Shown: positions 35,894-54,982 of the stretch, piece after piece | How the letters are laid out: every line of letters starts with the position of its first letter | Numbering within the stretch: position 1 is the first letter of the stretch | Virus record (IMG/VR): IMGVR_UViG_3300033156_000984 | Coordinates: 1 to 60,056 of that record | From: a virus | Lineage: Duplodnaviria; Caudoviricetes | Length of the DNA: 60,056 nt | Reading direction: 5' to 3' (one strand) | Notes under the pieces: generated by a model | What the model was told of the DNA's origin: nothing | Databases searched by the model: none | What the model saw: the letters and a program-made list of their open reading frames with translations, nothing else | Position numbers and translations under genes: made by a program

Positions 35894-36410
35894 CGATTAT
35901 TCCTCCTTTTGTATATAATCTAACTTTAGGTGTAACTTCTTTACCTAATAATCTTCTTGATAAAGCTCGTGAGAAATTATTTATTTCTTGTAGTTTTAGA
36001 TCAAGAAATTCTTTGAAGGTATTACGTCCCAACATCTTTGAACTCCCTGTAATAACAGCTTCAATATATTTGAATTTATTTAAATCATTATCAGAAAATC
36101 CAATGAAGAATTTGTCTGAGATATTATTTTCAAATTGTGCTAACTCTCTCATTACAGAATGTGACCATGCTAAATGTTGATAAGCTTTACCAGTTTTGCG
36201 ATGTACATACCCAAATGGATGTTCAGATGTTATTAGATGAGGTTTTGGGTGTTGTCTGGAATATGGATGATGTTTTTTAATCCATTTTTGAGTATGTGAA
36301 CAATTTGGGTTAAACCACGATAGAACTGAATTATGGATATATCTAGCAAATTCTCGTTTGAATTGTAGTAATTTCTCAAGATGACGGCGGCTTAGTGGCA
36401 TCTTCCTCAC
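35883..36410 (-). CDS. Neck/tail completion protein (HK97 gp10-like position)
   Basis: VHRKTG...YIEAVITGSSKMLGRN; basic; position. Confidence 0.55.
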   Translation of the reverse strand: MRKMPLSRRHLEKLLQFKREFARYIHNSVLSWFNPNCSHTQKWIKKHHPYSRQHPKPHLITSEHPFGYVHRKTGKAYQHLAWSHSVMRELAQFENNISDKFFIGFSDNDLNKFKYIEAVITGSSKMLGRNTFKEFLDLKLQEINNFSRALSRRLLGKEVTPKVRLYTKGGIIDVQ

Positions 36411-38718
36411 CTCTTTGATGTAATTTCACTTCAGTTGCACTTTCTAATTTTTCGAGGAGTTGCCTTAGACTTCTAGTAATTATATGCCTACCTCGCTCAG
36501 CGTCTTTAATAGCTTTCCTTATACTTTCTTTAGCTAATGCCAAATATGCTAATCCTCTTTGTTCCCAATAATACACATTTACATTTCCTTTAGCATATTT
36601 CTCACAATTGTCTAGAGCTTTTAAAGCTTCTTGAGCATTTCCTTGTTCTAATAATTGTACCGCATAATTATACCATGCTCTATAATTAGTTGGGTCTTTC
36701 TTAAGTTCTTCTTGAGTTACCTTAATATACAATTCTTTATTTCTAATATATTCTTCTTTATCCATTAAACCTAGATTAATTCCTTTAATTGGACAGTCAC
36801 AGAGGGTATATTTTAGTTCTTTCAAAGAGTCATCCACACATTCATGTACTTTTCCATAAAATTTAATTTCTGGATGATGTTTCCAAATTCTTACAGTAGA
36901 AGAAGGGATTGCTTTGCCATCCCATTTCAAATTAAGGAATTCTATTAACATGGCATCAGCAGGACACAATCTTATGATTTTAGATAGATTCAAAATGTTT
37001 TCATAATGCTCATCTGGATCCATATACATCACCCATCTGGTTCTAATTAATTTCAATCCATCATTGCGACATTTTGAAAAATCTTGTTCTAGCGGTGAGT
37101 GGATATATTCAAATTCTAATAGTTGGGAAATTTGGAATAGCTCATCAAACGGTTGTAGTGAAGTATCCACTAAAACTACTTGATCAAATAGAGTATAATA
37201 ACCCCGGAGAATGAATCTGATAAACTCTTCAAAATTTTCTTTACCAGCCAGGAGTAATAATCCAACACTATGATCTTCTTCTAGATCATTGATATAAATT
37301 TTACAGGGTTTAACACTGAAGAAAATTTTTTCATATGAATCGGTTCCAAGAAATACATAGTTAGGATTTGGATCTATATTTTTATAAAACTCATATTTAC
37401 GTTTTACCTCTTCTTTATTATACGCCCAAAAATGAGCTATAGAATGATTAGAGGCAAAAATTCCATTCAGAATACGCTGGAGTGGATGCTGGATGGAATG
37501 AACCTGAACTTCATTATCGGGACCAAAAACATAATTATTGGGAAAAACTCGACTTCCTCGATAAGCAATTTCATCGAATTTAAATTGTATAATGAAATCT
37601 GAATGAAAAACCATCCAAGGAAAAGCATGCACTAGCTGAGATGGAAGCGCTGTTCTCAATACTTTGCGGAAAGAATCCTCATTCCCTAACATTATTTCAT
37701 CATCATCAAGACAAAATCTCCAAGGTATATTGCATTCCAAGGAGTAATCGATTTCCCATTGGAATATCTCTCTGAAATTAATTTTTTTGTCCCAGTTAAC
37801 TAATTTAATCTTATTATATTTTCTTGAATATTCCTCTATAAGTTCCTTGGAGCCGTCTTTTGATTCATTATCTATTACTACTATCTCATCAGCATACTTC
37901 AATGCATTATTAAGAGTTTTCTCCAATAATTTCTTTCTATTATGAGATTGAATGAAAAAAATATTACGATCTGAGTTTTGTGGAATGTGTTTCTTAAGGT
38001 ATTTTATTCCATCTTCGCAATTAATATGCGAATTTCGAGTTTTGTGTTTAACTATTAAATATCTTGTAAGGTAAACACTATAACCACTTTGCCACATTCT
38101 AATGAAGAGATCATTGTCATTAAAATGATATGAGAATTGAGTATCAAATCCTCCCAATTTTTCAAATACATTTTTCTTAACATAAAAACAATAACTAGCG
38201 GCGAGCATAATTTCCTGAACTCTTGGTTCGCAATTACGTTGAAGATCATTAATATCTATTTCTTCCCACCCCTTTTTTAAAGAAGTCTGAGCAGGATTGC
38301 CCACATATCCAACCCCCGAAGCTATTATGGCGGCAACAGGTCCAAATTTATCTTTAGTAAATTCACTAGCTAATGCATAGGAAAACTGAAATCTTTCAAT
38401 TAAATCTTGAGGGACTTCTATATCAGCATCCATACATATTACTTCAGGAAATTTGGCCAGTTTTACTGCATAGTTCATCCCAATTTGATATCTATCGGAT
38501 TCGATTTTCTCATATCGCAAAAAATCCTTTTTCTTCTTTAAAAAACCACGTATGAACTCTCGAGTCCCATCCTGTGAATTTGTATCTATGACAATAATTT
38601 CTAAATTATCTTTATACTTTTCTTTAATTGGAGTTAATTGTTTGAGTAGATTATATAAATGATTTAGTTGGTTATGAGTTACAATGCAAATTGAGTACAT
38701 CCAAAATCCCTCCTTCAA
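36376..38718 (-). CDS. Glycosyltransferase with three GT2 domains and a C-terminal TPR
   Basis: IDTNSQDGT/MDAD, IDNESKDGS/LDDDE, VDTS/DFSKCRN/MDPDE/GKVHE; TPR DPTNYRAWYNYA. Confidence 0.85.
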   Translation of the reverse strand: MKEGFWMYSICIVTHNQLNHLYNLLKQLTPIKEKYKDNLEIIVIDTNSQDGTREFIRGFLKKKKDFLRYEKIESDRYQIGMNYAVKLAKFPEVICMDADIEVPQDLIERFQFSYALASEFTKDKFGPVAAIIASGVGYVGNPAQTSLKKGWEEIDINDLQRNCEPRVQEIMLAASYCFYVKKNVFEKLGGFDTQFSYHFNDNDLFIRMWQSGYSVYLTRYLIVKHKTRNSHINCEDGIKYLKKHIPQNSDRNIFFIQSHNRKKLLEKTLNNALKYADEIVVIDNESKDGSKELIEEYSRKYNKIKLVNWDKKINFREIFQWEIDYSLECNIPWRFCLDDDEIMLGNEDSFRKVLRTALPSQLVHAFPWMVFHSDFIIQFKFDEIAYRGSRVFPNNYVFGPDNEVQVHSIQHPLQRILNGIFASNHSIAHFWAYNKEEVKRKYEFYKNIDPNPNYVFLGTDSYEKIFFSVKPCKIYINDLEEDHSVGLLLLAGKENFEEFIRFILRGYYTLFDQVVLVDTSLQPFDELFQISQLLEFEYIHSPLEQDFSKCRNDGLKLIRTRWVMYMDPDEHYENILNLSKIIRLCPADAMLIEFLNLKWDGKAIPSSTVRIWKHHPEIKFYGKVHECVDDSLKELKYTLCDCPIKGINLGLMDKEEYIRNKELYIKVTQEELKKDPTNYRAWYNYAVQLLEQGNAQEALKALDNCEKYAKGNVNVYYWEQRGLAYLALAKESIRKAIKDAERGRHIITRSLRQLLEKLESATEVKLHQRGEEDATKPPSS

Positions 38719-40185: not shown

Positions 40186-41202
40186 TTACAAGGTGCGCTT
40201 CACACCAACCAGAGCAGCTATACCATAAGGATCATTCACTACAAGTACACTACGCTCATATACTTCGAACTCTTCAACCTGCGCTGAAGTCTTACCTAAT
40301 GACTCTTTCTTAAGTGGTACCAAATCAACGAAGAATACATTATCAAGATTCACGCAGAAGAATGCAGTTGAGTCTCCACCCCAGAGCTGATATCTAGTAA
40401 GACCACTAGCTGCAGCACTTGATATTAGACCATTAGGATCAAGTGTTATAGTATCAGGTATTGCAGAAGTTACAAAGATGGGGACACCTTCATAAGAAGG
40501 AACTTTGATACCGGGATCAACTTCAGTTGTATTTAATGATAGATAACCATATACCAATCCTTTAAGCTCACGGAGTCCACCCTCAGAACAGAATATTGCT
40601 TTCTTCTTACCCTTCACTGAAGATATTAGCTCATCAAGTTTAGTCAATGTTAGTGTAGCTGCATTAGCATCGCTTCCCATCTGGATAACCCTATCATCAC
40701 CGATATTGAACTCAGTAGTAGCATTAGCACAGTAATAGTACAGACCACTCATCTCAGTTATTGCAGTAGTAGCATCAGCACGTCCCCAGAACATTAGCCA
40801 TGTCTCACGCTCAACTATTCGATTTATTATGAATTGTATTTCATCCTGTAATAGGTCAGTCTTTTCTTTTCCTTTATCAATATCTGCCTGATATACTTTA
40901 CCTTTCATACCAAAGTTCACATAGTTAAAGCTCTTGAGATATACAGTACCTGTTTCCTCATCAAGCGAAGTATCGTCATCTGCAAATTCTGCTAGTAATG
41001 ATTGAGTTGTATAAGGATCGGTCTGTGATACATGATAACGTACATCATAACCACGACCGCTACCACGCTTACGTGGCACAACTGCCCGCACTTCATTGAT
41101 ATAGCGTGCATAGTCACGTAGCTGTTCGTCTTCTAAAGCACCCCAATCGACAGAGGAATCCATATTAAGATCTTTCAATACTTCGATGGGATCTACCTGC
41201 AT
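40186..41202 (-). CDS. Major capsid protein (HK97 fold)
   Basis: 338 aa, downstream of the protease; WLMFWG, LTLTKLDELI, YEGVPIFVTSAIP, LVVNDP. Confidence 0.85.
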   Translation of the reverse strand: MQVDPIEVLKDLNMDSSVDWGALEDEQLRDYARYINEVRAVVPRKRGSGRGYDVRYHVSQTDPYTTQSLLAEFADDDTSLDEETGTVYLKSFNYVNFGMKGKVYQADIDKGKEKTDLLQDEIQFIINRIVERETWLMFWGRADATTAITEMSGLYYYCANATTEFNIGDDRVIQMGSDANAATLTLTKLDELISSVKGKKKAIFCSEGGLRELKGLVYGYLSLNTTEVDPGIKVPSYEGVPIFVTSAIPDTITLDPNGLISSAAASGLTRYQLWGGDSTAFFCVNLDNVFFVDLVPLKKESLGKTSAQVEEFEVYERSVLVVNDPYGIAALVGVKRTL

Positions 41203-41208
41203 GCGTCA

Positions 41209-42459
41209 TCACCTCTCATATCGTTCTTTCAACTCAAGGATTGTACGTAACCTTTCTTCAGGTGTCAGTTCTTTTAGTCTTTCTCTTATTTCTTTTATTA
41301 CGTCTTTAGTTTCGGGTTTGTCGTCACGAGGCTGTAACCCTTTCCTAACGGGTACAGATTCGGCGACATCTTCAATTAATTGTGTCATTTTTGTTTCAAA
41401 TGCTTTAATCTTTTCATCTATTTTATTGAGAATATCCTTAGTTACTTCCTCAATATCGAGTTCTTTGGTTGGATAAGGATATGGATAACCATACTCCTCA
41501 CTGAGTTTCCGAAGCTCTTCAATCATCGCATCAATCTTGTCCTTAAGTTTCTTATCATCAATTTTACCTTTGAGTGTCTTTAGAAGTGCTATCACTTTCT
41601 GTATAGTATCTGCACTCTTTATAACCAAATCTTTTAGTTTTTCTATTTCAGTATCATCTGTGTTTTCATTATCTTCCTTTGTATCATCTTCTCTGGAATT
41701 ATCTACTTCTTTCGTCTGATCTTTAGTTTCATTAGTCGTATCCTGATCCTTTGCATCAGCAGATTTCTGAGTATCCTTAGCACCCTGAGAAGCATTCTGT
41801 GGCTCATCTCCTTCATTAGTAGGATTATCCACAATGGTGTCATCAGTATCTTTAGTTACATCCTTAGTCTGCTCATCCTCATCCTTCTTTTTCTTAAGAT
41901 CATCATCACGATTACCAACAACCATATCATCCACCTCCAATGCCTTCGATACATAATAACTCATTATCTTTGATAATGGTTGAGCTGGTAATGAAACTAA
42001 TGAGATTTCAAATATTTCTAAGTCATCACATACAAGGATTGTTCTACTGAGTTCTTCATTCCATTCCTCATGATATCTTACTCGGCCTCTGTATGAGAAT
42101 GAATTAATTATACCTTGAGTGATTTGATTCCAAATCCAATCATTATATTTATCTATCATAATTTTAACTCTAATTCCTTTATCGTCAAGTTTAAACTCTA
42201 AAAGTTTGCCTATAGGATAATTTTTTTCATGATTAAATAATACGGTATTACAGAATTTTAATGACTCTAATGCTCGTTCTGCTGCTTTCTTAGAGATAAT
42301 TTCAAATTCTCTATCAGGTGTTTCAACCATTAAGATATATCCCTCAACTATTCTATCTCCTTTCTCTTCATCTTTCTTAGTTTCGGATTCATAGCTTCGT
42401 ACTATATCAAAATATCCTTCGAATTCTTTTGTTCTAACTTCGTTAACAGTTATGCCCAT
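41209..42459 (-). CDS. Prohead protease with C-terminal scaffold region
   Basis: VEGY, LFNH...PIGK, FSY, EISLVSLPAQP; acidic linker and coiled coil; start moved to ATG 42459 after GGGGGTGA. Confidence 0.88.
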   Translation of the reverse strand: MGITVNEVRTKEFEGYFDIVRSYESETKKDEEKGDRIVEGYILMVETPDREFEIISKKAAERALESLKFCNTVLFNHEKNYPIGKLLEFKLDDKGIRVKIMIDKYNDWIWNQITQGIINSFSYRGRVRYHEEWNEELSRTILVCDDLEIFEISLVSLPAQPLSKIMSYYVSKALEVDDMVVGNRDDDLKKKKDEDEQTKDVTKDTDDTIVDNPTNEGDEPQNASQGAKDTQKSADAKDQDTTNETKDQTKEVDNSREDDTKEDNENTDDTEIEKLKDLVIKSADTIQKVIALLKTLKGKIDDKKLKDKIDAMIEELRKLSEEYGYPYPYPTKELDIEEVTKDILNKIDEKIKAFETKMTQLIEDVAESVPVRKGLQPRDDKPETKDVIKEIRERLKELTPEERLRTILELKERYER

Positions 42460-42463
42460 GAAC

Positions 42464-45400
42464 TCACCCCCTTTCAGAGCCAGGCGATTTCTCAACCTTC
42501 TTCATAAACCAAGCTTCACCTTTCTTTTCAAATAAGAATACACCTTCTACACGATTTCCCTTGAACTCAATCTTCTTGATTCCTACTGAATCTTCATAAA
42601 TTATTATACCCCCACTATCAAGTTTTTCAACAAACATTTCAGTGTTTTTAGTTTCATTAGCAGGATGATTGGGTGGTATGTAACCATGAAGATTTGAATA
42701 ATCTTCTTTTTCTTTTCTGATATATACCTCATCACCGCCAAATCTAACGACATCTTCGATTTTATTTGGAAGTATTATCGCATAATGATTATTGCCAACC
42801 GAATATCTAATAGCCCAATACCTAAGCGACGGTGAAACTCTAACCACTAATGGACCTTTGTAATAGATGTACTGATAAACAAATCGTCCTTTAACTTGAC
42901 AAACTATCTCTTTTGATTTACTTCGCTCATATTCAATTTGAATTTCACCTTTCTTAATTAATTCAACTAATTCATTCCTTACAGTTAAAGCACCTTCTAA
43001 ATTACCTACAGTCCAATATCTATATTCTTTGGGTATCTGTCTTCTAATATATCTAGGTAAAGCTGAGAATCCTACTGGTGGCATCCAACCTTCATCTACA
43101 GCACGTTTTGATAATACATAAGGTTCTTGATCATCTGGTTTTATTGCTAACCATCCATATTCACCACGTCCAAATTCTCCTTCTGAAGGTGGTAAGACCT
43201 CTTCAGCTAATTTCTCTAATTCTTCCAGAATCTCATTTCTATAGAATGGTAACTCATCTTCGGAATACAATTTATTATAATCAAACTCAAGCACTTCAAG
43301 GATATCTTCGGGTATATCTAATGATTTAAATTTTTCATTCTCTAAAGCTTTCCAGATATTTTTAATCCTTCTGAATACTAATCTATAATTCATTACTTTA
43401 CCATCAAGGAAATATTCATGAAACCATGGTTTTTGCGCACCATATTCCACATATCCTCGATCTATGATATGAAATACACCGGGATAATTTTTTGTGGCAC
43501 CAACTTTGCCGGGAGGTACTACTCCTTCAAATTCTAACCATTCAAATGGTTCCGGTGCAGCTTTCACAGCTGCTATCTCAACATTAACTAATTTTGAATC
43601 ACGTTTACGTTTTTTCCATTCACCTGTCTGCCAATTTATTTTAAAATATTTTTCCGATTCAGCATCAATTTTCTTAGCCTGCTCAAGTGTTAATACAGGT
43701 TCTTTTATAGTATCTTTGATTAAGTCCGCTAGCGTGAATTTAATTAAAACTTCATTTTTAACTAACTCAAATCGTGGATCGGTATGGCAAGTACGTCCTC
43801 TGAAATGATGTTGTGCTACATACTTGCATCGTTTATCTTCATCTGGTAATCTCATATATGGATCACTGGGTGTGAGATAATCTTTAGTGATATCCAAATC
43901 TTTAGCTTTCAAATCTTTCGGAATTTTGAATGTACAAACCAGATACCAATCATATCCAGTTCTTGCGTGAATTGCACCTAGCCAGTTTCTTCTATCACCA
44001 AATATAACTAAACCTAGTTTGGTATTTGGAGGAAGCTCAAATCGTTTGCGATTGATTATCTTAAGGATAGATTCACGATCTAGTTCAATGAAATCATCTG
44101 CTATCTCAAACAATACTTCTAAGAAGATTTTTCGTGAAACTGGTTTCATTTTTTCAGGATGGAAAGTAGTATTTCTCCTTGAAATTAATTCTTCCATAAT
44201 CTGTTTCAGCAATCTTTTAACTTTAGCTTTTGTTATTCCAGATATTACTTCTCCTTGTTCTAATCTGCTATACCAAGCTAATGCAATTCTGAAATCATCT
44301 CGTAATTGTTCGGTTTGTAATCTTTCTGGATTATATTTATCTATTTCTTGAATCTTTTCTGAGAAATGGGATTGTAATAATCTGATAACCTCCTTGAAAT
44401 TCTTTGGTTGTATAAATTTAATCTCATCCTTACGAGTGATTAGTTTCATCACTAATACCTCATTCTTGTATGCTTCCTCAAGTGCATTAACTAAATTAGA
44501 AGTACGCCTCTTTGTGGTATCTATAATTCTAGGCGCCCATATCCCAATATCGAATTTTCCCTTAATATTATCAATTATTAAGTTCATTTGTTCTCCTTCG
44601 ATTATGATTCTATCACCTTTCTTTAGTTTGACATCTGTATTAAAAGTTCGTCCGATTACTATTTTGCCATCTTGTACATCCTCGAAGTAATCCGAGTACT
44701 TCGAAGTTAATCCAATAGTATAATTATAAACTCCTTTTGTCTTTGTTTCATGTACATCTAAAATTTCAACTACTACAAGGAATGCTTTATGCCATTTAAG
44801 CCATCCGTTTCTTGAATTTACATCTAAATAATATTTTGCATTATGTTTTTTTATCACGACACCTTCAGAACCAGGCTTATGCGATAATTCTTCACATATT
44901 TCTTTAAATTTATCAAAATCATAATCTTCTAATTCGATATTAGGTACCTCATTTAATTTATGATTTTTTACATCCGGAATTTCTAAAGTTGAATATCCAA
45001 TACCTAATTTACGTAAGTATTCCTGCCGAACCTCTTCAAATGCACGATGTAAATCTCCAATTTTGCCATAGTACAAGCAAGTAAATACATTAGCTATGAA
45101 ATTAGAATCATCAACCTCTCCAAGTCTGTGTACATAAGCTGCTACAGCTTCACGTGGTTGATGTTCACCGTTTATCCAGCATTCAATCTCTGCATCAAGA
45201 ATGAATTGCTCAACCTTGAGTTTTAATAATTCCTTCACCATATTTGGGAATTTTCTTGTATGATCAGTTCCATCTTCAGAAATTATCTTGACTTTATTTT
45301 TATCTCTAAAAATCAAGACTCGATATCCATCATATTTCTTTGATATATAAATAGGCATATCGTCTTCCTTGATTAATTCCCATACAGCTTCCAAACTTTG

Positions 45401-45568
45401 TGGTTCGCCTTTAACTGTTACTCTTACAGGTTTCATTCCATAGAAGAATCGATTTAGTTTAATTCTATCTTCTTCTTTAGATTTTTCAGCTTGATCTTTG
45501 AAACGTTCAGCAAGGTATTTGGTTTTGTATCCCTGAATTGTAGCTAACGTACATTTCAGGAAATCCAT
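42464..45568 (-). CDS. ATP-dependent DNA ligase fused to two LigD 3'-phosphoesterase-like domains
   Basis: Ligase motifs KYDG, ILDAE, EGVVIK, WLKWH; PE-like YVAQHH...HTDPRFE...FEGVVPPG...IIDRG; second degenerate copy FVYQY...HGYIPP...LDSG...EFKGNRVEG. Confidence 0.82.
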   Translation of the reverse strand: MDFLKCTLATIQGYKTKYLAERFKDQAEKSKEEDRIKLNRFFYGMKPVRVTVKGEPQSLEAVWELIKEDDMPIYISKKYDGYRVLIFRDKNKVKIISEDGTDHTRKFPNMVKELLKLKVEQFILDAEIECWINGEHQPREAVAAYVHRLGEVDDSNFIANVFTCLYYGKIGDLHRAFEEVRQEYLRKLGIGYSTLEIPDVKNHKLNEVPNIELEDYDFDKFKEICEELSHKPGSEGVVIKKHNAKYYLDVNSRNGWLKWHKAFLVVVEILDVHETKTKGVYNYTIGLTSKYSDYFEDVQDGKIVIGRTFNTDVKLKKGDRIIIEGEQMNLIIDNIKGKFDIGIWAPRIIDTTKRRTSNLVNALEEAYKNEVLVMKLITRKDEIKFIQPKNFKEVIRLLQSHFSEKIQEIDKYNPERLQTEQLRDDFRIALAWYSRLEQGEVISGITKAKVKRLLKQIMEELISRRNTTFHPEKMKPVSRKIFLEVLFEIADDFIELDRESILKIINRKRFELPPNTKLGLVIFGDRRNWLGAIHARTGYDWYLVCTFKIPKDLKAKDLDITKDYLTPSDPYMRLPDEDKRCKYVAQHHFRGRTCHTDPRFELVKNEVLIKFTLADLIKDTIKEPVLTLEQAKKIDAESEKYFKINWQTGEWKKRKRDSKLVNVEIAAVKAAPEPFEWLEFEGVVPPGKVGATKNYPGVFHIIDRGYVEYGAQKPWFHEYFLDGKVMNYRLVFRRIKNIWKALENEKFKSLDIPEDILEVLEFDYNKLYSEDELPFYRNEILEELEKLAEEVLPPSEGEFGRGEYGWLAIKPDDQEPYVLSKRAVDEGWMPPVGFSALPRYIRRQIPKEYRYWTVGNLEGALTVRNELVELIKKGEIQIEYERSKSKEIVCQVKGRFVYQYIYYKGPLVVRVSPSLRYWAIRYSVGNNHYAIILPNKIEDVVRFGGDEVYIRKEKEDYSNLHGYIPPNHPANETKNTEMFVEKLDSGGIIIYEDSVGIKKIEFKGNRVEGVFLFEKKGEAWFMKKVEKSPGSERG

Positions 45569-45569
45569 A

Positions 45570-46067
45570 TCAATATTCCCCTTTCAATTTAAGGAATGGA
45601 GCATTCTCCCATTTATCAGGGGTTAAATAATCTTCTACTTTGATATCCATACCTGCATACTTGAAAGCCTCTGCCATACCTTCAGTACAAGTATATTTAT
45701 CTTTTAGATTAATTTTGAATATTATCGAAAAAGGAATTTTTAATACTATTCCAATTCCTGTAACGATTAAGAGTAGAAAATCATATTTACGTTTTTCAGC
45801 AATCTTTTTCTCGAAGAACTCAACTATTTTTTCTTCGAAACCTTCTGGTGCATTTTCAATTTCATATATTCTTATTTTGTATAAAGTGAGAGGTCCAATC
45901 TTCTTATATCTAAATCTTTCAGTAGAAGATGTCTTCCTAAATCCAAACCATCCAACCTCATAGATAGTATCAGATGATAGATAAGCTATATGATTACCCC
46001 AAGAATTACATATTTGTCGAATTGCAGTTCCAACAGGGGAATACTCATCTCGAAAGATTACTATCAT
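45570..46067 (-). CDS. Permuted papain-like NlpC/P60 peptidase (YaeF/YiiX-like)
   Basis: WGNHIA (His first), KYDF, YTCTE (Cys later), LTPD. Confidence 0.78.
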   Translation of the reverse strand: MIVIFRDEYSPVGTAIRQICNSWGNHIAYLSSDTIYEVGWFGFRKTSSTERFRYKKIGPLTLYKIRIYEIENAPEGFEEKIVEFFEKKIAEKRKYDFLLLIVTGIGIVLKIPFSIIFKINLKDKYTCTEGMAEAFKYAGMDIKVEDYLTPDKWENAPFLKLKGEY

Positions 46068-46086
46068 TGCAATTAATCCTCCTTTC

Positions 46087-47436
46087 TCATGCTAATTTAT
46101 TCTTCTGACATCCAAACACATACTCATAATGTCCATCAAATTTACTTAAAAAGTTCCATAACATTCTAAATACTCTCCAACCATATGGAAATTCCCAAGC
46201 ATCATGCATGTGGAAATTATCTGCATCCATGAAAGGTGTTTCATTATAAACTAGCGCTTTGGTTTGACTCAGAACCAAATCTTCGATATCATATGCTTCC
46301 TCATAACCATTTAATTCAACACCTAGTCTGGGTGAACCATAAATATAAAGATTGCGTAATCGAGTATCCACAGTCTTTATTGGATGAACTTCTTTTAATT
46401 TTGATTCACGTTCACCATTATAGGGCATAATTTTAGTAGCGTTAACTGAATTGACATCGTATTTCCTCAAAATTTCAGCCATACTGGGTGAAATAATGCA
46501 ATGTGGAGCTATCCAGTGACGACCTAATAAATCCTGTAAATTTACTTGATATATTTTAGAGATGTCTTTAAGATAATTTTCTTCGGTTCCTTGAAAATCA
46601 TGTATTTCAAACTGAAAAGCAAAATCCATATAAATATGTAATCTAAAATTTTGATAATGCTCTTTGATATATTTCCGAATTTCTTCTATTACTTTCTCAT
46701 TTAGGATAATAGTTTCAGCAATAGCGCAAGTAAATTTCATACCTTTGCTTATAGCTTCTTTGAAAAATTCAATAATATAAATATTTTCATTTTCATCCTT
46801 TAATTGAGAAAGAGAAGCAAAAGCCATTGGAAATCCCTCAATATCAAATGCAAATCGTATCTTACTTAAGTTACCAAATTGTTCCGGGAACATTTCAACT
46901 AAGTATTTTCTTAAAAATAACAAACCCGGATCACATGATAGTTCTGGATTATTAGTCCAATCATGGAAATAATATGCTTGACCAAACCCCTCCCACCCTT
47001 CAGCAGTCCCTACCATACCTGCAATGATATATGTATTGGATTCTTGATTTGTGGTCAACCATGGTATGATGTTGCTATAACCTTCTACATTAATAATTGC
47101 ACCCCCCCAAAGAGGATCAGAATAATATCCCCAATCCTCATCTGAATTATAAAAATAGCCTACAGAGGGTGGATATACGTTCCAAGGAATAAAGTGAAAA
47201 ATTGGTATATTTCCTCGTAAATTTCGTAAACGTTCTTCGGAGTTTTCACCTAAAATCTCCCCAAATGTTATTAACATATCTACTTCAGGGATATTCCTTA
47301 ATTGAAATGGGAGTTCAACAAAAACTACTTTATACCCATTTTCTTGAAAATATTTTGCTAATCTACTACATACTAATTTTGCAAGTTCAGCTATATCAAC
47401 ATATGAAATTTTTACTCCAATCCTGAGAAGCTGCAT
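46087..47436 (-). CDS. Polysaccharide deacetylase (CE4/NodB)-fold-like protein
   Basis: IRFAFDIEG, WIAPHCIIS...EILRKYDV, FHMHD; motifs are degenerate. Confidence 0.5.
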   Translation of the reverse strand: MQLLRIGVKISYVDIAELAKLVCSRLAKYFQENGYKVVFVELPFQLRNIPEVDMLITFGEILGENSEERLRNLRGNIPIFHFIPWNVYPPSVGYFYNSDEDWGYYSDPLWGGAIINVEGYSNIIPWLTTNQESNTYIIAGMVGTAEGWEGFGQAYYFHDWTNNPELSCDPGLLFLRKYLVEMFPEQFGNLSKIRFAFDIEGFPMAFASLSQLKDENENIYIIEFFKEAISKGMKFTCAIAETIILNEKVIEEIRKYIKEHYQNFRLHIYMDFAFQFEIHDFQGTEENYLKDISKIYQVNLQDLLGRHWIAPHCIISPSMAEILRKYDVNSVNATKIMPYNGERESKLKEVHPIKTVDTRLRNLYIYGSPRLGVELNGYEEAYDIEDLVLSQTKALVYNETPFMDADNFHMHDAWEFPYGWRVFRMLWNFLSKFDGHYEYVFGCQKNKLA

Positions 47437-47442
47437 GATGAA

Positions 47443-47841
47443 TCACCTACCAAACAACCTAATTGTATATGTCACAACACCGCTGACTTCAATTACTAAT
47501 GCTGGATATAAACTTTCCGATTCAGTATATTCCCAAGCTGATGTTGCGCTTACTGTATCTGAGGTGATAAAAATCGTATATGGTGATGTTAAATCCCATT
47601 TTGAAAGTGTGACTAAAGCATCTGTCCCTTCTTCATTATCGAATTTCAACCAATATTTAGAATAATCTGAAACATTTATAGTGATTAAACTAGCTGAAGT
47701 CTCGATCGAAACCCCAGATAATGGCATTGTAGGATTAACAGGTAAATATGTATTACTTGCAAACCAATCGCTTAAGGTTTTCACACCTTCAACATTTAAT
47801 TTTTCAAAGAATTCTCGCCATTCATCTAGTGTATTGAACAT
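47443..47841 (-). CDS. Small beta-rich protein, paralog of 49168..49644
   Basis: ITINVSDYSKYWLKF...GTDALVTL. Confidence 0.65.
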   Translation of the reverse strand: MFNTLDEWREFFEKLNVEGVKTLSDWFASNTYLPVNPTMPLSGVSIETSASLITINVSDYSKYWLKFDNEEGTDALVTLSKWDLTSPYTIFITSDTVSATSAWEYTESESLYPALVIEVSGVVTYTIRLFGR

Positions 47842-47868
47842 CCTAGCTCACTCCCTCTTTCCATCGAA

Positions 47869-49155
47869 TCAAAATAACTCAGAAACTATCCTTTCATAAA
47901 ATTTCCAAATATCTTCTAATCTAACTGGGATCCATCCTGATTTTTTTATGGTTTCAATTACCTTATCAAATTCATAATCAAATACAGAAAATTCCGCTTC
48001 CCCCAAATTAGAAATTGAATCCGCAATTCCTGGAATCACTATACTTGCTATTCCGGTTAGATTTTTCAAGATTATCAGATATTGTTTTAGAAAATCCAAT
48101 TTTCCATTATCTTCTATCCCTTTAACCGTTAAGTGAGATTCATCTATCTCCCAAGGTTTTTCTTTAGAAGCGAGTAATTGCCCTAATTGAAATACATATT
48201 TGTTTGCAAAATGTTGATTCACTAGATTAATCCAATGTCTATTGGTATTTACTGAATTTAAAGACAAATCATATTGAAATCCGTTATCACGAACGCTTTC
48301 GATTTTAGAAAAATCAGGATGGGTAGTTATTGCTTGGGTGGGGCTTGTAATTCGCTTTTTATCATCTTTGATATATCGATCACTTTCCATTTCATAAGTG
48401 CTAGAATATCCATAAACTCGATGAAAAGATTCTTGTAAATCTTTTATCGTGAAAATATCCCATTTGGGTTCCTGATAAATCTCGATAGGTCTAAGAGAGA
48501 GAGAACATCTTCTACGTAATTTAGATTTTATTCTATTTGCAGTTTTTTCTCCATTATATTCCATAACTTCAGGAAAATGTACTATTATTCCTAAAATAGG
48601 TATAAAATTATCTAATTTGACAAGGAAGAAATTTGTATAATCAAATTGAGCAGCGGTATTGCGAACATTTTGCTGAAAGCCAATGTAACCTTTAAAATGT
48701 CCAATATTTTTGAAACATACAGCTGAAACTTGGAATTCATTCTCTACACGCGGTAAGGAACGTAATTTATAAGTAGAATAATCACAATTCGGTGGGTCAT
48801 AATTATGGAACCTATTCGTAAATTCTGTATAATTCACAGATATGTGATTATCATCAAAAGTTCTCAATCTATCGTTTCTAAAACGAACTTTAAGTCCTGT
48901 GTGATAAGTATTTTCAGCTTCCGAAAAATCCCATCGAGTTTGGCAACCGATAACATAATACCCCGGCTCAAGTTCTATATATTGATATATACCAAAACCT
49001 ATAGTTTGATTCTTTACTCTAATGAAATTCTTTCCGTTTTCCGATAGGAGATTAATTGAGCTTTGATTCCAACCACTCCATCCGTTTAAACCATCACTTA
49101 AATCACCATTGGTGAAATAATTATCAGAAATCTGAATCCTTTTAAGAGATTTCAT
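47869..49155 (-). CDS. Carbohydrate-binding-module-like domain plus deacetylase-fold-like C-terminus
   Basis: NYFTNGDLSDGLNGW...IYQYIELEPGYY (galactose-binding-like); ends FDKVIETIKKSGWIPVRLEDI. Confidence 0.5.
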   Translation of the reverse strand: MKSLKRIQISDNYFTNGDLSDGLNGWSGWNQSSINLLSENGKNFIRVKNQTIGFGIYQYIELEPGYYVIGCQTRWDFSEAENTYHTGLKVRFRNDRLRTFDDNHISVNYTEFTNRFHNYDPPNCDYSTYKLRSLPRVENEFQVSAVCFKNIGHFKGYIGFQQNVRNTAAQFDYTNFFLVKLDNFIPILGIIVHFPEVMEYNGEKTANRIKSKLRRRCSLSLRPIEIYQEPKWDIFTIKDLQESFHRVYGYSSTYEMESDRYIKDDKKRITSPTQAITTHPDFSKIESVRDNGFQYDLSLNSVNTNRHWINLVNQHFANKYVFQLGQLLASKEKPWEIDESHLTVKGIEDNGKLDFLKQYLIILKNLTGIASIVIPGIADSISNLGEAEFSVFDYEFDKVIETIKKSGWIPVRLEDIWKFYERIVSELF

Positions 49156-49167
49156 AGTACATCACCT

Positions 49168-49644
49168 TCATGAAGTGAACGAAAAATCCCAAATCATTTT
49201 AACGAAATCTATAATCAAAGTACAGTTTGTATCTAGATAGAAAGTAAATTGAATTCCTGTTGGATAATATTCATTCATAATATTTCCCCAACTCGTAGAA
49301 TCACTTCTAAGGGTTGCATCATAACCATCTGAAAGGGTTACAGTCCTATACAGTAAACTATTAGTAGATGGATTGTAAAGAAATTCTACTGTTATTACTA
49401 CATCAGTTGCGCCTGTATAAATAAATCTTACATCATATTCAATAGCATCTGATAAATCCAATGTAATACAAAATTCACCTGATTCATCAAAACTCCATCC
49501 TGTATAAGTTCTTTGAGGTTTAGAAATCCATTTTTCTAATTCTGAGACTGGTAATCCACCATTTAATGCTTCAACATCATAATCCCAATTTCCTCGAGTA
49601 ATTCCTTCAAGGAATTTAATTAATAAATCATTTATATTAGGCAT
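49168..49644 (-). CDS. Small beta-rich protein, paralog of 47443..47841
   Basis: ITLDLSDAIEYDVRF...ATDVVITV. Confidence 0.65.
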   Translation of the reverse strand: MPNINDLLIKFLEGITRGNWDYDVEALNGGLPVSELEKWISKPQRTYTGWSFDESGEFCITLDLSDAIEYDVRFIYTGATDVVITVEFLYNPSTNSLLYRTVTLSDGYDATLRSDSTSWGNIMNEYYPTGIQFTFYLDTNCTLIIDFVKMIWDFSFTS

Positions 49645-49646
49645 CT

Positions 49647-50135
49647 TTAAAAACCTCCCTCTATTTCCTCCTCATCAAAAACTGAATCATAATTACGTAA
49701 TTTTAGTTCTCGTTTGATTAATTCTTCTAGGAATAATAATTCCTCCTTACTTAAATTGGATAAATCCAATCCGTCAGTAGAGTTATATGATAATTCTATT
49801 ATTTTACTATCATCTATTCGTTCTAATTTCAATCTATATAATGGATAATATGATGTAAACGGTCCATGAAACCTATCATATATGAAATGCGCACGTAGTG
49901 CTAGTTCCTTCGGCATATTACGCAGTATCCTAAATTTAATTGGTATATCTAAATCTTCTGGTAATGATTCGCTTCTAATCAAGAAATCTATATCACCTGT
50001 TGTACCTTCCTTATCATAAACGATCCCGCCTGTTAGATATACAAAAGGATCCTTAACAATGAATGATTCAAAATAATGTAGTATATCATTCAATTTAATT
50101 CGTTTACCTAAATTTTCGCCTGAATGCTGCATCAT
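49647..50135 (-). CDS. Pol-beta superfamily nucleotidyltransferase-like protein
   Basis: VYLTGG...GDIDFLI matches hG[GS]-x(9-13)-DhDh. Confidence 0.65.
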   Translation of the reverse strand: MMQHSGENLGKRIKLNDILHYFESFIVKDPFVYLTGGIVYDKEGTTGDIDFLIRSESLPEDLDIPIKFRILRNMPKELALRAHFIYDRFHGPFTSYYPLYRLKLERIDDSKIIELSYNSTDGLDLSNLSKEELLFLEELIKRELKLRNYDSVFDEEEIEGGF

Positions 50136-51329
50136 TCATTCAGCTCCATCCTTTACTTCTTCAATCGGTAATTTTTCAATCTTATTACCAAGTATCATGA
50201 TATTCCTATCCCCATCCTCTACCTCAGGTAGATTAATACCATAAATCCTAGATAATATTCTACGTGATTCGTTAATTGTAATTGCACCATAACGTATTGC
50301 ATCAGATATACTACGTAAAATAATTTCATCCTCACCCGGTGATGAGACTAGGAATTTTAATGAATATTCTTCACCAAATGATGGTACTATCAACTGATTA
50401 GTTAATTTACGTGCTATAATACTTAATAATGGTTTAATAGTACGTTCAGTAGTTATCTTTACAGAGAACGGTAGGTTAGTTTTAGAAGTAGTTTCAGTTG
50501 CATAACCAAAATCACCGGGATTAATACCGAAATTCTGAAATACAATTGATTCAAGCTGTAATTTCACTTCTGGATATGATTTATAATCAAATTTACTAGC
50601 AAGCTCAATCCATGATACGTCATCTGAGGTTACACCACGCATGATAGGTATTTCTTGCGCTTCCTCAAGCTGTTGTTTTAGTTTTTCGTATTCTTCATCA
50701 TTTAAATAAGGTACTAACAAGATACCATCAGGTGTGGTACCACCTAAGTAATCCATTAAATTACGTGAAGCTAATACTAATGAAGCAACCTCAACCTCGA
50801 TTGTATTTAATATTGGAAATCCCCAAATTTTGTTGCTACGTGTATGATAAACCATATGAATAATTTCATTACGCTTAAATTTAATTTCCTTACCTTCAAT
50901 TTTTTGAATATATGATAGAATCCTGCCGTGGTCATCAACCTCAATCTCGAAATGATGCGGCGCACGTACCCATAGCTCTACAATTTCATGTCCTCTAGTA
51001 CGTACTATTTCAATGAATGAAATATCATATAAGACTAAATCGAATACGATTTTCTGTACTAGATCATTTAAATCTTCATAGTTTACATTGATTGCTTTCA
51101 ACCAATCTTCGATTTCTTTACATGCTGAAGGATCGGGTCCTGCAACAAACCATATAGCTTCACCAGCTAGTTTACTTAGGAAATCTACACATTGACGTAC
51201 TATAGCTACCTTCTCATAAATTGTTTCAATTAATGGGAATGATAATCTACCTGCGGGTTTTAATTTATTAGTAAATAATCTATCAGTAGTTACCGTACCT
51301 TTAGGCGTAGGCATTTTTATCCTAACCAC
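50136..51329 (-). CDS. Portal protein
   Basis: FIEIVR...IVELW, EIIH...WGFP, FGINP, GAITINESR, DGDR. Confidence 0.88.
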   Translation of the reverse strand: MVRIKMPTPKGTVTTDRLFTNKLKPAGRLSFPLIETIYEKVAIVRQCVDFLSKLAGEAIWFVAGPDPSACKEIEDWLKAINVNYEDLNDLVQKIVFDLVLYDISFIEIVRTRGHEIVELWVRAPHHFEIEVDDHGRILSYIQKIEGKEIKFKRNEIIHMVYHTRSNKIWGFPILNTIEVEVASLVLASRNLMDYLGGTTPDGILLVPYLNDEEYEKLKQQLEEAQEIPIMRGVTSDDVSWIELASKFDYKSYPEVKLQLESIVFQNFGINPGDFGYATETTSKTNLPFSVKITTERTIKPLLSIIARKLTNQLIVPSFGEEYSLKFLVSSPGEDEIILRSISDAIRYGAITINESRRILSRIYGINLPEVEDGDRNIMILGNKIEKLPIEEVKDGAE

Positions 51330-51338
51330 CTTTCTTCA

Positions 51339-52814
51339 TCATGTAAATACCTTAATTACCTTGGGTTTCATTTGGATTGTTTCAATCTTGATAGGTGGGC
51401 GAAATGTGCGTTCTGATATACCTTCAAGAGCATAGTATAACGCATCTACACAATCATCATGCTTTGAATGTGGGAAGGTTAATAATTGTGTAAACATTTT
51501 ATCCCAATCTATTTCCTCATTAAATATTATGTGTCCATTCTCAAATTTTGTCAAATATTTTGTAAACCTCATTACCTTGCTTTCTGATGCTATACTACCT
51601 TTAATATCGAAACCATCTTGTAATAACTGATCATGTAACATTTTGAAACCTGTTACTTCCATATTAATGAATTTTGTATTCCATTTATGCTCAAGATTAA
51701 TTAAATGTGATTTAATCTGTTCATAACTAAATTTGCCTGCTAAATAATCAAGTATATATACCTTCTCAGGGTAATCTGGATTAATACCTACTACAACGAA
51801 ACATGTTTCATCAGGTCCTGAACCTGAAGCTGGATCTATGCCTATACCAGTTAACCAGGTTGATCTATCGAAATCAGTTCTATCTGTTATCAACCAGTAT
51901 GGCGAGATGATATTACCTTCCAGCTGTGAGAAATCCATCTGGTATTCAAGATTAAATCTTAAAGTACCCATGATACGTTTCCTACGTAGTAATTCTTCCG
52001 TTGGGAAGAATGATTCCCAAATTGAGTGTGGTTTACCTTCTGAATCGTAGTATAAAGCTTTAATTTTTAATGTTTTCATTAGTTTGTTTTTCATAATGTA
52101 AGCATGTAAATCTTCGGGTGAATGTGTTGTACCATTTACATGAATTCTACCACCTGCTAGCATCATTGGTAAGATTTCGTTAATGAATGTTTCAATTGTA
52201 CGTACAGCTGCTATACCTCTGCAATTATTTTTATCAACCAAATCATCGCATACTATTAAATCAACATGCCTTGCTCTGATGGTTGATTCCAAACCCAATG
52301 CTGTTAATGTTGGTGTATCCAATATTTTAGTTCGTTTTTTAACAGTGAACCTTAACTGATCCCATTGTAAATCTCGTGAGTACCATTCACCAAAAAATGA
52401 AATAAATACTGGATCTTGGAAATGTAGTTTCATTACGTTAGGTTGTAGTTTAGCTTGCGCTAATGTTTTTGATACAACTACTAATCTGATATCTGGATTT
52501 TTTAATATATTCCATAATACAAAAGCTCTATTACAAATCCAGCTTTTACCAAATCCTCTCGGTCCTAAGACTAATGTTTCTTTATTATCTAATTGAAATT
52601 TGAACATTTTCCTATGAAATGGTTGCAAATCCATCCTCAATACTATCATTATGAACATTTCCCATAGATTTTCTGATAGGATTAATTCGCCTGCTTCAAG
52701 ATATAATTCTCGTTCTATCAACTGGCATACCTTATCTTCAGCTTTACGTTTACGAGCTAAATTCACCATTTTACCTAGAACTACTCCCTCATTGGATACA
52801 TTAATACCTCCCAA
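51339..52814 (-). CDS. terL: Terminase large subunit
   Basis: Walker A GPRGFGKS, Walker B LIVCDD, nuclease GIDPA...HDDCVDA. Confidence 0.93.
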   Translation of the reverse strand: MGGINVSNEGVVLGKMVNLARKRKAEDKVCQLIERELYLEAGELILSENLWEMFIMIVLRMDLQPFHRKMFKFQLDNKETLVLGPRGFGKSWICNRAFVLWNILKNPDIRLVVVSKTLAQAKLQPNVMKLHFQDPVFISFFGEWYSRDLQWDQLRFTVKKRTKILDTPTLTALGLESTIRARHVDLIVCDDLVDKNNCRGIAAVRTIETFINEILPMMLAGGRIHVNGTTHSPEDLHAYIMKNKLMKTLKIKALYYDSEGKPHSIWESFFPTEELLRRKRIMGTLRFNLEYQMDFSQLEGNIISPYWLITDRTDFDRSTWLTGIGIDPASGSGPDETCFVVVGINPDYPEKVYILDYLAGKFSYEQIKSHLINLEHKWNTKFINMEVTGFKMLHDQLLQDGFDIKGSIASESKVMRFTKYLTKFENGHIIFNEEIDWDKMFTQLLTFPHSKHDDCVDALYYALEGISERTFRPPIKIETIQMKPKVIKVFT

Positions 52815-53725: not shown

Positions 53726-54982
53726 TTATTTATTGTGGAATAATCCAAATTCCTGTTCTAATCGTTTATTAGCGATTTCTATATAATCTGGATTTAATTC
53801 TATGCCAATCCAATTTCTACCTAATCGTTGTGCTACTATAGCTACTGTACCTGAACCCATGAATGGATCAAGTACAATACCAGCTTCCCAGCCTGCATTG
53901 CAACCACAATCAGTCCAGCCGATGCATTTACGTATCGCTACTGCATGTAAGGTACTATCATATGTCCCATGTGTTATAAATTCGGTATCAGCAGTATAAG
54001 GTTTGGGTTCGCTTTGTTTAATTACTTTAGTTCTTTCAATTATTCGTTCACGTGGTTTACCACATTTCTTGCAAACCCATCTTGGACAGCTTGATTTAAT
54101 CATTGGTTCAATTAATCTAGGTGGAAAGGTTGCAAAATGCGCATCCTTGAAAGGTTGTACTGGTATTGTCCATAAATCGCCTGGGTTTTTGCCGATGATG
54201 AATTCTTCTGAATTATGTCCGTTCAGTAGTTCTATCATAGTATCCGATTCATATTCGACCCTTACAGCATCTAGATCAAACCAGTATTTTTTATTTTTAA
54301 CCAGCATAAATATGGGTTCATATGCTCTGGTGAACCTATCCTTCACGCTGTCCGGTAAATGGTTTGGTTTATACCAAATTACTATGTTACGTAATATCCA
54401 GTCTTGCTCGTCGATCATGCGTAATATTAACCTATAATTTTGTAGCGCTAAGCATTTTGGTTTTAGTTTCGATTGCGGGGAAGGTTTGTATCTATATAAT
54501 TCAGATCTTGAAATGCTTGCAGTCTCACGCCAATCATATCTGCCGCAGTTGCTGCCACCATAACAATCACCATGATTCCAGTACATTACTCCTGTATCCT
54601 TTAATACACGTTTCAATTCAGCGGTTATTTGTAATAGATGATCAATATACATTTCTAATGTTGGTTCTAATCCTAATTGACCATACCATGCACCACATTT
54701 TTTACAGAATGCAAATCGTTGCGTGAAATGTAGGTGATCCTTAAAGTTGCCTATGCTGTTTTTTGTACCACCACGATATCGCATTCCTTCCTGGAATTGC
54801 CATTCGTGTTCACAGTTCGGATCACCATCCCATACCTTGAAAGTGCTTTCCCCATAGTACCTTAAACCCCAGTACGGAGGTGAGGTTATTATGCAATCTA
54901 CAAAATTGTCTGGCATTTGTTTTAGTACCTCTAATGCATCACCTTGATGAATCTTGTTTAGCCAGTCTGACTTTGTCTTCAT
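53726..54982 (-). CDS. DNA methyltransferase, beta class (N4-C/N6-A), with Cys-rich insertions
   Basis: Motif IV TSPPY precedes motif I DPFMGSGT; HFATFP; CEHEW/CKKC and CKKC/CGC inserts. Confidence 0.92.
   Translation of the reverse strand: MKTKSDWLNKIHQGDALEVLKQMPDNFVDCIITSPPYWGLRYYGESTFKVWDGDPNCEHEWQFQEGMRYRGGTKNSIGNFKDHLHFTQRFAFCKKCGAWYGQLGLEPTLEMYIDHLLQITAELKRVLKDTGVMYWNHGDCYGGSNCGRYDWRETASISRSELYRYKPSPQSKLKPKCLALQNYRLILRMIDEQDWILRNIVIWYKPNHLPDSVKDRFTRAYEPIFMLVKNKKYWFDLDAVRVEYESDTMIELLNGHNSEEFIIGKNPGDLWTIPVQPFKDAHFATFPPRLIEPMIKSSCPRWVCKKCGKPRERIIERTKVIKQSEPKPYTADTEFITHGTYDSTLHAVAIRKCIGWTDCGCNAGWEAGIVLDPFMGSGTVAIVAQRLGRNWIGIELNPDYIEIANKRLEQEFGLFHNK

Follow-up and report, generated by a model that had tools for sequence, protein, structure and literature searches.

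A predicted ATP-dependent DNA ligase fused to two phosphoesterase-like barrels in the head gene module of uncultured tailed viruses: a candidate capsid-delivered end-repair system

Bacterial LigD works together with Ku in non-homologous end joining (NHEJ). It combines an ATP-dependent ligase, a 3'-phosphoesterase (PE) with a His-His-Asp site and an arginine, and a nucleotide-adding module; that is, it heals, adds and seals. Here we describe candidates for the same three parts in the head gene module of an uncultured tailed virus, whose whole IMG/VR record (IMGVR_UViG_3300033156_000984, 60,056 bp) was analysed and is called the window below. Between the portal and the prohead protease genes the window encodes a 162-amino-acid (aa) nucleotidyltransferase (NTase)-like protein and a 1034-aa protein in which a predicted DNA ligase is followed by two LigD-PE-like barrels, named PE-A and PE-C. 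An earlier note on this DNA, made from the sequence alone, had proposed that these genes form a virion-linked system for the repair of DNA ends. There are several differences from LigD. The adding module of LigD is an AEP primase-polymerase, whereas that of the window would be a Pol-beta-like domain of about 110 aa. The PE is duplicated, the second copy being degenerate; in the first, glutamate replaces the essential phosphate-binding histidine, and tryptophan the tyrosine. The genes belong to a viral head module, where they are often fused to prohead protease and DNA methylase domains. Finally, Ku is absent, as the note had stated: PF02735 has no match at E <= 1 in the six frames of the complete record.

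The best structure and profile matches of both barrels are the archaeal enzymes CkoPE and MbaPE (Protein Data Bank, PDB, entries 3p4h and 3p43), with which PE-A shares the metal triad and the arginine. These are single-domain enzymes, whereas the viral barrels are arranged in tandem, fused to a ligase, and carry Glu in place of His51 and Trp in place of Tyr55. In the part of the CkoPE study consulted here, His9, His15 and Asp17 bind the metal, Arg19 and His51 bind the phosphate, and Tyr55 also belongs to the active site; the mutants H9A, H15A, D17A and H51A form less than 1% of the product, R19A 1.6% and Y55A 23% (PMC3082917). According to the same part of the paper, archaeal PE genes are not clustered with repair genes, and the authors could assign no pathway to them (PMC3082917).

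A broader frame is provided by the polyvalent proteins of phages and plasmids. Those of phages lie among late virion genes and are argued, in the consulted part of the original description, to be included in the virion and injected with the DNA (Iyer et al. 2017, PMC5512222). As described there, they share with the present family the giant multidomain architecture, the position among late virion genes, the association with MuF and the C-terminal assemblin-like peptidase, as well as DNA methylase, 2H and Pol-beta NTase domains and the proposed injection with DNA. In contrast to the viral domain considered here, their Pol-beta NTases are linked to ArdC and are predicted to modify proteins, at least in the text consulted. 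The main text of PMC5512222, as far as consulted, has no occurrence of LigD and mentions ligases only as ATP-grasp RNA ligases outside polyvalent proteins; it also says that polyvalent proteins are scarce in archaea and that nearly all those longer than 1000 aa come from bacteria. The earlier note had called the system undescribed. Its parts and the polyvalent theme are known from that paper, and what stands of the claim is the combination of ligase, PE and NTase in a head module, for which no description was found in the literature searched; the supplement of PMC5512222 might list such architectures. The family fits the polyvalent-protein frame as a new ligase/PE/NTase form, probably delivered with the virion.

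The P1 Dar system and the T4 IP proteins are loaded into the head through the morphogenesis machinery, ejected, and protect the incoming DNA. We know of no ligase or PE activity in them. Their packaging was demonstrated experimentally, whereas that of the present family is presumptive. In structure, the 162-aa protein is matched best by a minimal NTase, HI0073 (1no5), with which it shares the G-[GS]...D-x-D signature. Such minimal NTases pair with HEPN toxins, whereas the viral domain directly precedes a DNA ligase in the same chain in 46 of 54 proteins. As for viruses that join the ends of their incoming genomes, the mycobacteriophages Omega and Corndog use an NHEJ-type reaction to circularise them, according to the consulted part of a paper (PMC12848934, citing Pitcher 2006). 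They bring Ku and borrow the LigD of the host, whereas the virus of the window lacks Ku and carries genes of its own for ligase, PE and NTase.

Two sets of relatives are referred to below: 79 IMG/VR loci with an open reading frame (ORF) containing PE-A, out of 80 loci kept from 94 confirmed relatives, and 159 family proteins carrying the C-terminal module (C-module), which were scanned with domain hidden Markov models (HMMs). All family members found belong to uncultured viruses. The ligase part of the 1034-aa protein matches PF01068 (aa 61-258, E 1.5e-18, 67.7 bits against a cut-off of 26.2 bits) and PDB structures of human DNA ligase 1 (E 9e-7), and a profile of 39 family ligases matches DNA ligase structures at E 2e-20. 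The protein contains motif I, K78-Y-D-G, followed by D125-A-E127-I-E129, E235-G-V-V-I-K240 and W-L-K258, which we take to be motifs III, IV and V. Among 79 homologous ligase domains, the lysine of motif I is kept in 92%, D80 and G81 in 96%, E127 and E129 in 95-96%, S234-E235-G236...K240 in 95-100%, and K258 in 97%. Judged by these motifs and matches, the assignment of the adenylation domain to ATP-dependent DNA ligases is unambiguous, and the earlier call of such a ligase is borne out; all motifs that the note had quoted from the NTase, the ligase and PE-A are present at the places given there and are conserved across homologues.

The region following the adenylation domain (aa 263-380) is also conserved, with G306 and G318 in 97%, P346 in 95% and K375 in 91% of the homologous domains. 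The Pfam and PDB profile matches end at approximately aa 246-264, short of this region, and its identity as the OB domain is a reasonable assumption only. It is followed by LigMid, a helical domain of about 90 aa that shifts its place within the family: it was found in 26 of the 159 proteins at varying positions, in relatives mostly N-terminal to the NTase-like domain. The LigMid alignment had no informative match in PDB or Pfam. A polymerase domain of the AEP/LigD type is not seen in any Pfam match at E <= 0.1 on the ligase or the 162-aa ORF, and the NCBIfam LigD models match the ligase part alone, far under their cut-offs.

Pfam yields nothing on the C-terminal 480 residues (aa 555-1034), and the NCBIfam model LigD_PE_dom matches them at just E 0.02-0.06. 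The AlphaFold2 (AF2) model of this C-module, built from an alignment of 50 sequences, has a mean predicted local distance difference test score (pLDDT) of 86.1; the PE-A region is beta-rich with blocks above 90, and the segment between the barrels has values of 93-98. A Foldseek search with the C-module gave LigD-PE structures in all seven best rows (3p4h, 3p43, 2lj6, 3n9b chains A and B, 3n9d, 5dmp; E 5e-5 to 2e-3), followed by an unrelated structure in the eighth (E 1.5e-2); among the BFVD viral structures there were no matches at E <= 0.001. In VIA-align, PE-C (protein aa 893-1027, model residues 339-473) superimposes on MbaPE 3p43 with Z 14.8 and a root-mean-square deviation (rmsd) of 2.1 A over 118 of 124 residues, and on CkoPE 3p4h with Z 14.5, the next fold being a triphosphate tunnel enzyme with Z 5.6. 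The profile of 43 PE-C sequences matches 3p43 at E 3e-6. For PE-A, the fold assignment is based on its profile (45 sequences; 3p4h at E 4.2e-5, 3p43 at E 1.6e-3), on hhalign comparison with the PE-C profile (probability 94%, E 1e-7), and on the Foldseek search with the whole C-module, modelled as one. The models and profiles confirm that the C-terminal module consists of two predicted LigD-PE barrels, of the eight-stranded beta-barrel fold of this superfamily, an internal duplication with a degenerate second copy. The earlier note had predicted a PE-like domain with a degenerate repeat, and the PE barrel fold was indeed found in both copies.

The candidate active site of PE-A contains Q586, H588, H595, D597, R599 and A671-P-E673-P...W677. 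H588, H595, D597 and R599 are invariant in 45 of 45 PE-A sequences and align, with a one-residue insertion, to the metal triad and Arg of CkoPE; the position of CkoPE Tyr55 is Trp in 45 of 45 (W677). The replacement of the usual EDH..Y motif by A-P-E-P...W, noticed earlier, is confirmed. The Tyr55 to Trp change may be tolerated, because the Y55A mutant of CkoPE keeps partial activity in the data consulted. Judged by sequence, PE-A is a predicted member of the PE superfamily with an intact metal site and a non-canonical phosphate site, and therefore canonical PE chemistry, that of a Mn-dependent 3'-phosphatase that also resects 3'-ribonucleosides, cannot be assumed. PE-C has none of the His-His-Asp metal ligands.

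Inteins interrupt PE-A in 8 of the 159 proteins (P0013, P0015, P0044, P0054, P0064, P0076, P0097 and P0138), with Cys...His-Asn|Ser/Cys/Thr junctions, at three sites that fall into its two most conserved motifs. Inteins typically sit at functionally critical sites. Related viruses have inteins or LAGLIDADG domains elsewhere as well, namely in the ligase (L024) and in TerL and the portal (L043). The 86-aa segment between the barrels is rich in Pro and Trp and has a mean column identity of 52% in an alignment of 44 sequences, with no informative match in PDB. A match to a designed retro-aldolase (E 1.8e-4) in the searches with LigMid and the inter-barrel segment was taken as noise.

The 162-aa protein contains G36-G37...D48-x-D50, a third carboxylate D87, and a C-terminal helix (aa 130-152). 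In 40 family members, G36, G or S at position 37, and D48 are present in all 40, D50 is Asp in 39 and Asp or Glu in 40, and D87 is kept in 31. PF01909 matches 3 of these 40 members at E <= 0.1. The NTase profile has 34 PDB matches, every one of them a polymerase of the Pol beta or TdT type, with E values of 0.3-1.2 only. The AF2 model has pLDDT 87.4, seven of the 13 best VIA-align rows are NTases, and the Atlas neighbours of the protein carry NTP_transf_2. A search for homologues of similar length returned the ORF itself alone; with phmmer, 53 of 158 family proteins proved to contain a homologous internal domain (E down to 1e-28), which the family HMM finds in 62 of 159. Together, the motif and the weak fold and profile matches make a Pol-beta NTase fold probable. 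A templated polymerase is unlikely, because this is a minimal domain with neither fingers nor thumb; terminal addition or adenylyl transfer would be more plausible.

In HMMER searches of 1.84 billion representatives with aa 555-1034, 876 clusters (50% identity) were found at E <= 0.001, including 338 at E <= 1e-30. Of the 79 loci, 52 encode ligase and PE-A in a single ORF and 7 have the ligase in an upstream ORF, while it is undetected in 20, many of which are cut by the contig end; the respective numbers for the NTase-like domain are 35, 16 and 28. Both domains occur together in 54 proteins; in all of these the NTase-like domain lies N-terminal to the ligase, and in 46 the two are contiguous. 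The relatives are polyproteins of up to 2242 aa with up to about eight recognised domains. In the window, the ligase and the PE pair form one chain, and the NTase and the protease are encoded by separate genes. The NTase-like domain, ligase and PE pair are mostly one polyprotein in related viral loci, and the window has a split minimal version of this widespread family.

In the window the split is made by a cassette of five ORFs, for which no homologue was found among the ORFs of the 80 related loci and no Pfam or NCBIfam family above threshold. The proposal that the NTase and the ligase are one ancestral unit separated by this cassette is well supported by the constant domain order, the contiguity in most relatives and the lack of cassette homologues in them. 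The five ORFs probably do not belong to the repair unit. A search of 50,697 phage records with the two largest, of 449 and 428 aa, gave no match; there are weak Atlas leads from the 449-aa ORF to polysaccharide deacetylase/DUF2334, and the 165-aa ORF matches phrog_1128 at E 1e-5. The cassette was also considered as recently acquired foreign DNA. This has no support in composition: its GC content is 0.30-0.34, and GC and third-position GC (GC3) are equal to those of the flanking genes.

Other domains are fused to the family proteins as well. Among the 17 first homologues, Pfam finds a Dam methylase in 7, and an MBL domain and parts of inteins in 2 each. Dam is the commonest extra domain in the larger set (46 of 159), where 2H/LigT occurs in 6 and PNK3P in 2; altogether, the domains recognised by Pfam in relatives are Dam, Dcm, 2H/LigT phosphoesterase, PNK-type 3'-phosphatase and the MBL fold. 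The methylases point to protection of DNA.

The link of the family to the virion is as follows. Six of the 79 loci end too early to be tested for the protease; in the other 73, the prohead protease domain is fused to the family protein in 30 and encoded by the next ORF in 23, that is, the two are together in 53. An XkdF-type protease was found in 50 of the 159 proteins, in every case no more than 40 aa away from the C-terminus, and the linker between PE-C and the protease has a median length of 17 aa; among the 17 first homologues, six have PF14550, the XkdF-type protease family, at the C-terminus. Just upstream of the family gene, as far as the contigs reach, MuF was found in 5 and the portal in 6 of the 12 scanned loci. 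These observations agree with the head-module linkage and synteny proposed earlier. The conserved synteny and the protease fusions are the best indirect argument at present for incorporation into the capsid.

In one locus (L002, 2976-5045) the MuF protein upstream of the polyprotein matches Pfam ATLF, a zincin-like peptidase region, at E 1e-8, and it fits the metallopeptidase theme of polyvalent proteins. The sole match to the module among the 50,697 phage records is ANMV-1 (KP703175), an uncultured archaeal virus. Its ligase-PE gene is annotated as 'ATP-dependent DNA ligase' and directly follows the portal gene (1913-3193), which is annotated as 'MutT-like phage hydrolase' and matches PF06381 Phage_portal_3 at E 3e-22.

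On the strength of the observed domain identities, conservation, fusions and synteny, we propose that the family is a late, capsid-delivered, Ku-free kit of the head module that heals and seals the incoming genome, a proposal to which we give about an even chance. The protein would be made late and enter the procapsid with the protease and scaffold, to which protease it is covalently tied in relatives; the maturation protease would then free it, and it would travel with the DNA into the next host. There PE-A, through a metal bound by His-His-Asp, would clean blocked 3' ends, the NTase-like domain would add or activate a nucleotide at the end, and the ligase would seal the break through adenylated K78, while the metal-free PE-C and the conserved linker would keep the nucleic-acid end in place. 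In sum, the incoming genome would receive first aid against host nucleases, with no need of Ku. Packaging, ejection, catalysis and the nature of the substrate, DNA or RNA, are presumptive parts of this scheme. A more specific version is tentative and in our view rather doubtful: a large and hitherto undescribed class of mostly archaeal-type tailed viruses would load, by way of the prohead protease, a Ku-independent end-joining machine that consists of a nucleotide adder of the Pol-beta type, a Mn phosphoesterase in a variant form with Glu for His, and a DNA ligase, often with DNA methylases, and that is injected and heals and seals breaks made by restriction or CRISPR nucleases before viral genes are expressed. 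Circularisation of the incoming genome, suggested by the earlier note, did not gain specific support; the facts pertaining to it are just the 114-bp terminal repeat, the Terminase_6C and 6N matches of TerL and the analogy with mycobacteriophages.

A number of observations weigh against delivery of a working kit with the capsid. Presence in the virion and ejection are suggested indirectly, by fusions and synteny. The ligase protein of the window is not fused to a protease, and no targeting signal was identified in it. Two protease HMMs detect no adjacent protease in 20 of the 73 testable loci; in some of these, the next gene encodes an 820-860-aa protein with a major capsid protein (MCP) domain at its C-terminus. 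In PE-A, the position of the essential His51 of CkoPE is Glu in 33 of 45 sequences, including E673 of the window, and three residues before this position the window carries Ala at a site that is Lys in 44 of 45 relatives, so that, as judged from sequence, the canonical PE chemistry may be lost or altered. Of the earlier call of a Pol-beta-type NTase, the motif part stood, with the signature kept in 40 of 40 members, and the fold part is weak: the match of the 162-aa ORF to PF01909 (E 0.042, 14.7 bits) is under the 21-bit cut-off, Foldseek gave no match at E <= 0.001 for the model, and the best VIA-align match, 1no5_B, has a low Z of 6.0 with rmsd 3.5 A over 73 residues. Finally, the 2H and PNK3P domains of relatives suggest that 3'-phosphate or cyclic-phosphate ends are healed, and this would suit repair of RNA as well as of DNA.

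One alternative is that the protein is made late and stays unpackaged, sealing nicks or ends in concatemeric DNA before or during packaging, or in the head, so that the protease fusions merely reflect co-expression. In favour of this, nicks are known to affect packaging in T4, the window has the genes in a single dense late operon together with the terminase and the portal, and 20 of the 73 testable loci have no detected adjacent protease. We nevertheless consider this unlikely, since a covalent C-terminal protease fusion in 50 of 159 proteins is hard to explain if they do not enter the procapsid, and since DNA methylases and MuF neighbours fit the published theme of injected proteins. The protein could also be an ordinary replicative ligase that joins Okazaki fragments and has come to lie in the late module by chance. 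The virus does have replication genes of its own (the PriL-like and MCM protein, SNF2 helicase and RuvC), and a scan of 52 ORFs revealed no second ligase. On the other hand, the place between portal or MuF and protease or MCP is conserved and fusions are common across the 79 loci, and the replication block is on the opposite strand at a distance of at least about 22 kb; such a coincidence seems extremely improbable.

The other two alternatives concern the chemistry. The ligase could seal RNA, for instance tRNAs cut by anticodon nucleases or HEPN RNases, with the PE, 2H and PNK domains healing the ends and the NTase rebuilding 3' ends in the manner of CCA addition. Minimal Pol-beta NTases usually use ribonucleotides, the ligase has a weak match to PF09414 RNA_ligase (E 0.021), and a few relatives carry the 2H/LigT and PNK3P domains. 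DNA ligases are a far better match both for the single protein and for the family profile, the commonest extra domain is a DNA methylase, and the ends of DNA primers are the substrate of canonical PE enzymes in the part of their description consulted (PMC3082917); repair of RNA is thus improbable. Alternatively, the PE barrels could be non-enzymatic, forming a module that binds or bridges ends and, as a stand-in for Ku, presents them to the ligase. PE-C has lost all metal ligands, PE-A lacks the essential phosphate-binding His, the copy in the window lacks the near-invariant Lys, and the record has no Ku. However, the metal triad and Arg are invariant in all 45 PE-A sequences, and this, together with the inteins in the conserved motifs of PE-A, argues for a working active site. 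We therefore put little faith in purely structural barrels, which we regard as quite improbable.

The genomic context of the module is summarised in Table 1. The record has an exact direct terminal repeat of 114 bp and a GC content of about 32%. The minus-strand half is a densely packed late operon, and the portal, ligase and protease genes are all on this strand. TerL matches Pfam Terminase_6C, as well as Terminase_6N (T4likevirus-type) at E 0.077. No MuF was detected in the window. The start codon of the protease gene (ATG at 42459) is 4 nt past the stop codon of the ligase gene and is preceded by the Shine-Dalgarno-like run GGGGGTGA. A programmed frameshift from the ligase into the protease frame was considered and dropped: the protease most likely starts at its own ATG behind this run, and a +1 shift would be required; a slippery site was not searched for. 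The interval shows no sign of separate transcription units, as it has 59 sigma-70-like promoters against 77.5 in shuffled sequences and 3 terminators against 6.1, that is, fewer than the shuffled sequences. The plus-strand half encodes the MoxR/VWA pair, the SNF2 helicase, the 1005-aa PriL-like and MCM protein and RuvC. The 780-aa glycosyltransferase protein of the head-tail structural block, together with the five-ORF cassette, hints at modification of virion or host-surface glycans.

Table 1. Positions of genes and protein domains in the window (aa, residues of the 1034-aa protein for its domains)
Feature	Coordinates	Strand	Evidence or remark
MoxR-type AAA+ ATPase and VWA/CoxE-like protein	1796-3945	+	start of plus-strand block; MoxR-type ATPase PF20030, E 2e-31
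1005-aa replication protein	17533-20550	+	primase-large-subunit-like PF04104, E 3e-6; MCM P-loop PF00493, E 3e-8
780-aa protein	36376-38718		head-tail structural block; three GT2-type glycosyltransferase regions and TPR repeats
Head completion, 780-aa triple glycosyltransferase and tail genes	downstream of MCP		late operon
MCP	40186-41202	-	
Prohead serine protease (S78), acidic helical scaffold-like C-terminal half	41209-42459	-	PF04586, E 2.3e-15
1034-aa ligase-PE ORF	42464-45568	-	
PE-C, second, degenerate LigD-PE barrel, aa 888-1030	42479-42907	-	VIA-align, profile
Inter-barrel segment, aa 795-880	42929-43186	-	invariant Pro, Ser, Trp and Arg positions
PE-A, first LigD-3'-phosphoesterase-like barrel, aa 575-740	43349-43846	-	profile, AF2, Foldseek
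LigMid, small helical domain, aa ~395-505	44054-44386	-	found in relatives
Presumed OB domain, aa ~263-380	44429-44782	-	conserved region after adenylation domain
Ligase adenylation (nucleotidyltransferase) domain, aa ~45-262	44783-45436	-	motif I K78-Y-D-G and motifs III, IV, V
Five ORFs (158, 428, 132, 449, 165 aa)	45570-49644	-	no family hits
162-aa NTase-like ORF, stand-alone	49647-50135	-	begins 1 base past portal ORF end
Portal protein, upstream edge of module	50136-51329	-	PF04860, E 4.1e-18; phrog_12, E 1.3e-22
TerL	51339-52814	-	
DNA methylase	53726-54982	-	late operon, upstream of TerL

TerL is at most 22.5% identical to that of any deposited phage. The PriL-like and MCM protein, a homologue named from a Thorarchaeota metagenome-assembled genome (MAG), the similarity to ANMV-1, and the DNA ligase structures matched by the family profile, which we take to be archaeal, together suggest an archaeal host for the virus of the window, as far as gene content can indicate it. 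A scan with the single protein confirmed no relative in the species-representative genomes of prokaryotes, and a strict pattern of the PE-A motifs had one match among 185,579 such genomes, on a 5.5-kb contig of a Planctomycetota MAG (L082). Thus the family seems to occur almost exclusively on viral and metagenomic contigs, and its hosts may not all be archaea.

Should packaging and activity of the protein prove true, this would be a case of virus-delivered repair of DNA (or RNA) breaks, in which damage is mended on arrival. Known counter-defences inhibit the host nuclease, whereas repair on arrival would, if true, be a new principle of counter-defence. The archaeal PE enzymes gain a context, as here a PE is physically joined with a ligase and an NTase-like domain, and the polyvalent-protein theme is extended to giant proteins of archaea-linked viruses. 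The family itself is large, with invariant candidate catalytic residues and with inteins marking its key motifs, and the switch from His to Glu, if true, would make these enzymes a new catalytic variant within the PE superfamily.

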